Origin: a virus
Lineage: Duplodnaviria > Heunggongvirae > Uroviricota > Caudoviricetes
Virus record (IMG/VR): IMGVR_UViG_2713896777_000002
Strand: one strand, 5' to 3'
Length of the DNA: 11,792 nucleotides
The notes under the pieces were generated by a model, which worked only from the letters and a program-made list of their open reading frames with translations, searched no databases and was not told the origin of the DNA. How positions within the stretch are numbered: the first letter of the stretch is position 1; each line of letters starts with the position of its first letter. Positions 2,933 through 11,774 of the stretch are shown here, in pieces. A program made the translations under genes and the position numbers.

Positions 2933-3328
2933 TCACATTTCATAGGTAATGACATAAGTCAGATCGGCTGAACTCCACAGGCCCGCATCATCGTCGCGTC
3001 GGTAGTCATAGCCACTGGCCACCATACTGGTGATCAACTCTGACAGTGCCGGGATATCGCTCATCACCGGATAAATCCGGGACTCCATCCACGCATCCAG
3101 CTCTGAATCCGGCACCTGAGCAGGCAGGAAAACTTCNATATGCAGCTCCGCCTGCCAGGTATCGCTGTCCAGCTCTTCGCCCGTGTATTCAGCGCCGGTG
3201 AGATAAACGGCAACTGCCGGAAAATCCGCCTCATCAAAAACAGCGGGGCGACCATCAAAAAACGTCGCCCCGGTGTCATGCTTCTCCAGTGCATCCAGTA
3301 CGGCTGCACGGAGTTCAGTATGTTTCAT
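2933..3328 (-). CDS. U: Tail terminator protein gpU (131 aa)
   Basis: Translation [33 protein letters not shown]... matches lambda gpU. ATG at 3326-3328 overlaps the Z stop in an ATGA arrangement. One codon is X because of the ambiguous base at 3137. Confidence 0.92.
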
Positions 3329-3781
3329 CGCTTTATTACCATCCTCAGTTGATGCTGCAGCGCATAGCCCAGCTCTTTCGGAAGACGTTCACGCCGTATC
3401 CGCTCAATATTTTGTTTAAACGCCGTGGTCAGCGGCACCGCCATCGGGATTTTCACCACATCAATGGGGTAACGGTTTTTCCCGGCCACACGCTGCATNA
3501 CATGCCACCGNCCATTTTTCAGTTGCTGAATAAACGCGCCGGGAATACGACGGTTNCCCACCACAAGCACGCTGCCGCCACCTTTCAGGGATGAACGCTG
3601 CCCCTTTTTACGACGCCTGCGTCGGGACAGGACAACCCGCGCATTCCCCAGCTTGATTACGGGCAAATCCCCCCGGTTAACCTTGATTCTGGCCTGCGGA
3701 TTTTTAACCGTGGCCCTTTTCAGCCTGGCCCTTTCCTTTACCAGTTTCCGGCGTACCTTTGTCTCACGGGCAACCTGTGAC
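3325..3781 (-). CDS. Z: Tail completion protein gpZ, C-terminal portion only; the 5' end is lost in the N gap
   Basis: Translation immediately after the gap reads SQVARETKVRRKLVKERARLKRATVKNPQARIKVNRGDLPVIKLGNARVV...LRMVIKR, matching about residues 42-192 of lambda gpZ. Stop at 3325-3327. Three X residues come from ambiguous bases at 3499, 3511 and 3556. Confidence 0.88.
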
Positions 3782-3847
3782 NNNNNNNNNNNNNNNNNNN
3801 NNNNNNNNNNNNNNNNNNNNNNNNNNNNNNNNNNNNNNNNNNNNNNN
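3782..3847. other. Assembly gap: run of 66 N
   Basis: Directly visible as 66 consecutive n characters. Flanked by FII sequence on the high-coordinate side and Z sequence on the low-coordinate side. Confidence 1.
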
Positions 3848-4167
3848 CGCCCAAGCCAGAGATGACAGCTTCCGCCATCATCCGGCGAAATCCGGTCTAT
3901 CCAGAAGTTTTCCTCACCGATGGTCAGCGTGTCTCCACGCCGCAGCTGCCGCACATCATCAGTCCGGACAAACAGGGACGGGCTGGAGCCTTCAACGCGC
4001 ACGCCCTGTCCGGCATAGCTGATATTTTCAGGGTCATCAAAAACACCACGTATCACAGCACCGGACTGCTCACCGGATGTCATGGTGGCTGACGTTCCCA
4101 TGTACCCGCGTATCGTTTCATCGGCGCAGGCAATGGCAGCATCGAACAGGTTATCGAAATCAGCCAC
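3848..4167 (-). CDS. FII: Head-tail connector protein gpFII, N-terminal about 106 codons; the 3' end is lost in the N gap
   Basis: Translation MADFDNLFDAAIACADETIRGYMGTSATMTSGEQSGAVIRGVFDDPENISYAGQGVRVEGSS...SCHLWLG matches lambda gpFII. The start codon is GTG (plus strand cac at 4165-4167), preceded by GGGAGG. Confidence 0.88.
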
Positions 4168-4178
4168 AGCGCCTCCCG

Positions 4179-4574
4179 TTATTGCATTCTGGCCAGGCCA
4201 CGTTCTGTCATTTCGGCTGCCACACCGGCAGAGACACGAAACGCCGTTCCCGGCAGCACAAATGCCACAGGTTCATCCCGCGTGGCGTGAAGTGCATCGG
4301 TATGCAGCGTCACCAGTGCCACAACCGTGACCAGAGCAGCCGTATCAGTCACGGTATCCGTCTGTGCTGATACCACCTCATTTTCATGTCCGGTCAGCGC
4401 ATTTTCCGGGCTGACAGACGTGTCCTGACCGGCTGCGTCATCCGTGTCATCAAGCTCCTCTTCCAGCTCTGCCACACGGAGCGCCAGTTCTTCTTTCGTC
4501 CCCGTCAGGCTGACATCACGGTTCAGTTGTTCACCCAGCGAGCGGAGACGGGCAATCAGTTCATCTTTCGTCAT
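4179..4574 (-). CDS. FI: DNA packaging / head completion protein gpFI (131 aa here)
   Basis: Translation from the ATG at 4572-4574 is MTKDELIARLRSLGEQLNRDVSLTGTKEELALRVAEL..., with C-terminus ...HATRDEPVAFVLPGTAFRVSAGVAAEMTERGLARMQ, matching lambda gpFI. The ORF-track start at 4613 is an upstream extension. The central acidic segment looks divergent and one codon shorter than I recall for lambda. Confidence 0.88.
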   Translation of the reverse strand: MTKDELIARLRSLGEQLNRDVSLTGTKEELALRVAELEEELDDTDDAAGQDTSVSPENALTGHENEVVSAQTDTVTDTAALVTVVALVTLHTDALHATRDEPVAFVLPGTAFRVSAGVAAEMTERGLARMQ

Positions 4575-11762: not shown

Positions 11763-11774
11763 AGGTCGCCGCCC
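11763..11774. other. cosN: the 12-bp cohesive-end sequence (reverse complement of GGGCGGCGACCT), present here in joined form
   Basis: Plus strand 11763-11774 is aggtcgccgccc. The reverse complement of 11751-11792 reads gcgatccgacaggttacg|gggcggcgacctcgcgggttttcg, i.e. lambda right end joined to lambda left end as I recall them. Confidence 0.85.

Follow-up and report, generated by a model that had tools for sequence, protein, structure and literature searches.

The 280-aa open reading frame that joins genes FII and Z in the DNA analysed here is confirmed to be present in the sequence and is judged an artefact of assembly with no real protein behind it; the 66 N within it very probably mark a paired-end scaffold gap over an unresolved repeat bubble, written with an underestimated distance. 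The stretch under study (11,792 nt at its full length, hereafter the window) corresponds, as its reverse complement, to the whole 11,792-bp contig LDYO01000071.1 in assembly GCA_001309565.1 of Escherichia coli O26:H11 PARC448. This source was identified through an exact match of the portal protein; a private 95-mer from the terminase gene had no match in genome_contigs and occurred in 6 viral contigs and 1 gut-metagenome contig, all at 97.9-99.2% identity and none of them the source. Illumina HiSeq2000 reads of the PARC448 genome (LDYO00000000), taken as 100-bp pairs from inserts of 300 bp, had been put together by ABySS 1.3.4 into 240 contigs at ~489x coverage (PMC4563881). The N run belongs to this draft, short-read ABySS record, and the 66 positions that it occupies disagree with the 167 nt conserved at the same place in relatives.

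Results

The fused frame and its two halves

All genes in the window lie on the minus strand (Table 1). A count of N over the whole window returned one multi-base run, of exactly 66, and four isolated single N. The original prediction of a single 280-aa frame running over 66 N agrees with this count, with the mechanical ORF list, which gives the frame a GTG start, and with the translation, which opens VADFDNLFDAAIACADETIRGYMG...CHLWLG, continues through 23 X, resumes as SQVARETKVRRKLV... and ends at a stop. These 23 X are made up of the split codon CGN, 21 all-N codons and the split codon NNG; the junction thus consists of the 66 N, with N in 23 of the 280 codons, and does not contain a continuous, determined in-frame FII–Z sequence. 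The region 3782-4167, to which the prediction had been attached, takes in the gap and the FII part, and the full frame is 3325-4167. As the fused frame is a property of the deposited sequence, no chance statistic applies to it, and the relevant yardstick is the spacing of the two flanks, 66 versus 167.

Both halves pass the thresholds of their expected protein families. The FII part scores 70.7 bits against Pfam PF05354 (Phage_attach; cut-off 26) over profile positions 4-96 of 99 and matches residues 1-106 of 117 in PDB 1K0H and other lambda gpFII structures (E = 9e-67); it sits between FI and Z on the same strand, in the order seen in annotated relatives. The Z part scores 200.1 bits against Pfam PF06763 (Minor_tail_Z; cut-off 23.9) over profile positions 41-190 of 190, and a PDB search with this fragment as query returned no solved relative by sequence. 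With the halves corresponding to gpFII 1-106 and gpZ 42-192, the gap indeed hides what had been proposed, namely the 3' end of FII, the FII–Z intergenic region and the 5' end of Z. More precisely, the N run covers the final 11 codons of FII (18 in the TGG variant described below) and its stop, together with the start and first 40 codons of Z, both of which can be seen in each of the five relatives that were read closely.

Table 1. Features in and around the FII–Z gap (positions in the window)
Feature	Position	Strand	Basis
U gene (tail terminator), intact, downstream of Z	2933..3328	-	Pfam PF06141; gene call; 4-nt overlap with Z stop
Single N	3137		Haplotype difference: G in L131 type, A in L139 type
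Z gene, 3' part (tail completion protein)	3325..3781	-	Last base of codon 41, codons 42-192 and stop; aligned to full Z
Artefactual 280-aa ORF: FII(1-106) + 23 X + Z(42-192)	3325..4167	-	ORF list and translation; split in stored gene calls
Three single N	3499, 3511, 3556		Haplotype differences, where the window switches from L131 type to L139 type
N run, 66 (scaffold gap, very probably)	3782..3847		N count; 101 nt below the 167 nt of relatives
FII gene, 5' part (head-tail joining protein)	3848..4167	-	Codons 1-106 and two bases of codon 107 (CGN = Arg), read from a GTG start at 4167
FI gene (DNA-packaging protein), intact, upstream of FII	4179..4574	-	Pfam PF14000; gene call of 131 aa; relatives

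Length of the hidden stretch in relatives

The original prediction expected about 167 bp in the gap and proposed aligning its flanks to lambda. When the 100 nt bordering the gap on either side were placed on five references (a lambda record, phage PhiR68_2 and E. coli 25-07338, PE164 and UTME-2), the flank-to-flank distance was 167 nt in all five, and both flanks had 0 mismatches in E. coli 25-07338. In lambda (L003, minus strand) the hidden stretch resolves exactly into the predicted parts: 34 nt of FII end including the TGA stop (GGGCGTACCGCCTGCCGTTAACCGTCGCCGCTGA), an 11-nt FII–Z spacer (AAGGGGGATGT) and 122 nt of Z, or 40 codons plus 2 nt (ATGGCCATAAAAGG...).

Wider searches returned the same figure. 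The span in the record equalled the query plus 101 nt in the 25 best phage matches and the 40 best E. coli matches, and likewise in 48 of 51 two-piece E. coli matches, sampled at even steps among 3,657 ranked E. coli records, with a 1-nt difference in the remaining 3; spacing in the sampled relatives was in every case 166-168 nt. A spacing of 167 nt was also found at 126 of 126 loci, most of which were chosen by that very spacing. Exact flanks 167 nt apart occur in at least 120 viral contigs, whereas exact flanks 66 nt apart gave no match in either viral_contigs or genome_contigs, in searches in which targets that themselves carry N were possibly left unmatched. Judged from these relatives, the real distance between the flanks in PARC448 is almost certainly 167 nt.

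The predicted 34/11/122 split of that distance holds in lambda but not in PE164 and UTME-2, the two closest relatives over the whole window. There TGG stands in place of the FII stop TGA, and the annotated FII (3894-4268 in both L130 and L131) is 124 aa long, with a 7-residue extension, and shares 10 nt with the start of Z. The 167-nt total is identical in the TGA and TGG forms and so stands under either. Among the 126 loci the codon at this place is TGA in 123 and TGG in 3; a Cys-14 variant of FII is common to the window, PE164 and UTME-2, and TGG is found in 2 of the 22 loci with Cys-14. For PARC448, TGA is the better guess, with the 34/11/122 split uncertain.

Frame arithmetic and gene calls

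From FII start to Z start is 365 nt in relatives (354 nt of FII plus the 11-nt spacer), which is 2 mod 3, as is the 101-nt shortfall of the placeholder; the loss of these 101 nt therefore brings FII and Z into one frame. The earlier argument that a length error other than a multiple of 3 had aligned the two frames is therefore correct, and the shared frame is visible in the translation. We caution that the open frame across the gap is uninformative on the real sequence, because an N run cannot hold a stop.

It had also been anticipated that automated annotation would likely call a chimeric gene here. This did not happen: the gene calls stored for the contig comprise a pair of partial genes, each stopping at an edge of the gap, one of 107 residues (3848-4167) and one of 151 residues (3325-3781). 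The FII–Z fusion is produced only by a naive (six-frame) ORF scan.

A second copy of the head module and the placement of N

The same assembly contains a second contig, LDYO01000222.1, that is identical to the window over 4,571 nt from the cos end and then departs from it, first by 17 SNPs and then by an IS66-family element inside gene C. The presence of this near-identical contig means that the PARC448 genome holds at least two copies of the head module. Its IS66 arrangement matches that of UTME-2 and several O111/O26 genomes, and the region is multi-copy in E. coli, where a genome has it in 2 places at the median and O26:H11 str. 11368 has it in 8.

Two haplotypes, both from related strains, were compared across the region: L131 (UTME-2, with the IS66 insertion) and L139 (a prophage of O26:H11 str. 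11368). They differ at all four positions at which the window has an isolated N, and these four (4/4) all lie on sites that are biallelic among ~120 relatives, against a background of 27 of 658 nearby positions (4.1%). We interpret the isolated N as, probably, ambiguous calls from collapsed co-resident prophage copies. The gap itself shows a similar relation to haplotype differences. Among the 167 hidden positions the two haplotypes differ at 9, first and last included, and the determined sequence ends one base before the first of these differences and restarts one base after the last. Polymorphic columns among relatives are also denser in the hidden stretch (24/167, 14.4%) than in the flank (4.1%). 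A second copy is thus present and haplotypes differ inside the gap, the haplotypes in question being those of related strains and not the FII–Z region of LDYO01000222.1. Along the window the haplotype changes in patches, being of L131 type to 3430, N at 3499-3556, of 11368 type at 3622-3937, of L131 type at 4054-4128 and again of 11368 type at 4200-4365.

A proposed origin of the gap

The gap may be accounted for as follows. PARC448 would carry at least two closely related lambda-type prophages with many close-set differences across the FII–Z junction, and these co-resident copies would have collapsed in the assembly graph, some bubbles being reduced to one branch and others to ambiguous bases. 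The single-N step presumes that ABySS handles ambiguity codes in this way; a literature search on its treatment of ambiguous consensus returned nothing. The longest compound bubble, that at FII–Z, would have been left open and bridged by read pairs, and the distance estimated from them written as 66, while the hidden DNA would be a normal FII 3' end, followed by a short junction and by 122 nt from the beginning of Z. That 66 stands where 167 is expected would be an estimation error, since few pairs of a 300-bp insert would span 167 nt and repeat copies would add noise. A naive ORF scan would then read the placeholder-joined FII and Z as a 280-aa protein. An error of 101 nt is large for a distance estimate at ~489x coverage and counts against this explanation, in which we nonetheless place high confidence.

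Alternative interpretations

One proposal refines the bubble explanation and is compatible with it: the two sides of the gap, and the patches around it, could come from different co-resident prophages, making the consensus chimeric. The alternation of L131-type and O26-11368-type patches points in this direction, as do the second module copy in the PARC448 assembly and a shift in identity to L130/L131 from 99.7% left of the gap to 98.7-99.0% right of it. However, mosaicism is natural in lambdoid prophages, and shifts of identity at the FII–Z junction occur in natural contigs too, such that the window could represent a natural mosaic prophage instead of a collapsed consensus; we hold the refinement tentatively, as having somewhat less than an even chance of being right.

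A second alternative is that the 66-nt distance is accurate and reflects a real 101-bp deletion that created an in-frame FII–Z fusion in a defective PARC448 prophage. If this were true, the prophage would encode a covalent head–tail hybrid protein (FII + Z). The frame is open across the gap, coverage of 489x normally gives a fairly accurate distance estimate and defective prophages are common in E. coli, but we consider a deletion very unlikely because the N run guarantees an open frame once the two frames coincide, because the 66-nt spacing was absent from both collections searched and the sampled relatives kept close to 167 nt, and because the gap edges fall exactly on haplotype differences, which is expected of a graph bubble and not of a deletion. 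In lambda, moreover, FII is established as acting on the head, whereas Z acts on the tail, and a covalent fusion of the two would be non-functional.

Less likely still is that real sequence was later masked in place by those who prepared the window or the collection. The genome_contigs collection does have a few stretches masked as N runs, but an in-place mask would have preserved the length of 167, the position of the single N on haplotype differences points to the assembler, and a copy of the NCBI contig from an independent collection matches the window in full, N included. Since the N run is present in this NCBI-derived draft contig, it is part of the draft record, and post-hoc masking was rejected. 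Rejected as equally improbable was an intrinsic difficulty in sequencing the hidden stretch, through a strong hairpin or extreme composition: its fold and GC gave no supporting evidence (z = +0.88 for the 167 nt of the closest relative, with 158 of 200 shuffles folding at least as well; GC of 0.55-0.63, like the surroundings), and it has been sequenced in thousands of genomes.

Comparison with lambda and other prophages

The window has the lambda gene order, Nu1-A-W-B-C/Nu3-D-E-FI-FII-Z-U-V-G-T-H, and ~98% nucleotide identity to lambda and phages closely related to it over its whole length. Lambda gpFII is 117 aa long, of which the window retains 1-106, and gpZ is 192 aa long; the difference from lambda at this point is that 66 N replace 167 nt, which makes unreadable the C-terminus of FII (11 aa in lambda), the 40 codons that open Z and, between them, the spacer that bears the ribosome-binding site (RBS). 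Prophages of non-O157 Shiga-toxin-type E. coli (O26:H11 str. 11368, UTME-2 and PE164) have the same layout at 99.0-99.2% identity to the window, but their genomes are closed and, unlike the window record, have FII and Z as separate genes. The IS66 (ISCro1-family) element that interrupts gene C in UTME-2 is likewise inserted in one of the co-resident PARC448 copies.

Short-read drafts of prophage-rich E. coli likewise have N runs of estimated length, ambiguous bases at differences between copies and duplicate contigs. Compared with other scaffold gaps, the only unusual aspect of this one is the coincidence that a 101-nt error put two adjacent genes in one frame.

Among lambdoid phages, the FII–Z junction seems to form a natural boundary of mosaic segments. 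Identity in a gut-metagenome contig (L132) is 92% to the left, on the Z side, and 98.9% to the right, on the FII side. Some E. coli prophages (H158-H165) match the query on the Z side only or on the FII side only; L005 is also cited in this connection.

Other sites in the window

The 12-nt lambda cohesive-end sequence GGGCGGCGACCT lies at 11763-11774 on the minus strand. From there the contig runs on for another 18 nt and stops, at the point where its sister contig LDYO01000222.1 starts. The 18 nt that precede cos on the minus strand (to 11792) appear to match what we take to be the right end of lambda; if so, cos would be joined, as in a prophage or a circular form. At the other side of the window, the heptamer GGGAAAG, presumably the lambda G-T frameshift signal, is found at 1765-1771 on the minus strand, where gene G (1747-2169) comes to its end and overlaps T (1331-1765).

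Discussion

The fused frame is an ordinary artefact of assembly, located in a lambda-like prophage from a draft genome of STEC type, and brings no new biology. Its value is in quality control, as a naive ORF caller could put a 280-aa FII–Z protein into protein databases or cause a fusion or pseudogene to be counted here. Because the contig probably mixes co-resident prophages in one consensus, its SNPs are unfit for prophage typing. The biology involved is that of the standard lambda head–tail genes only.
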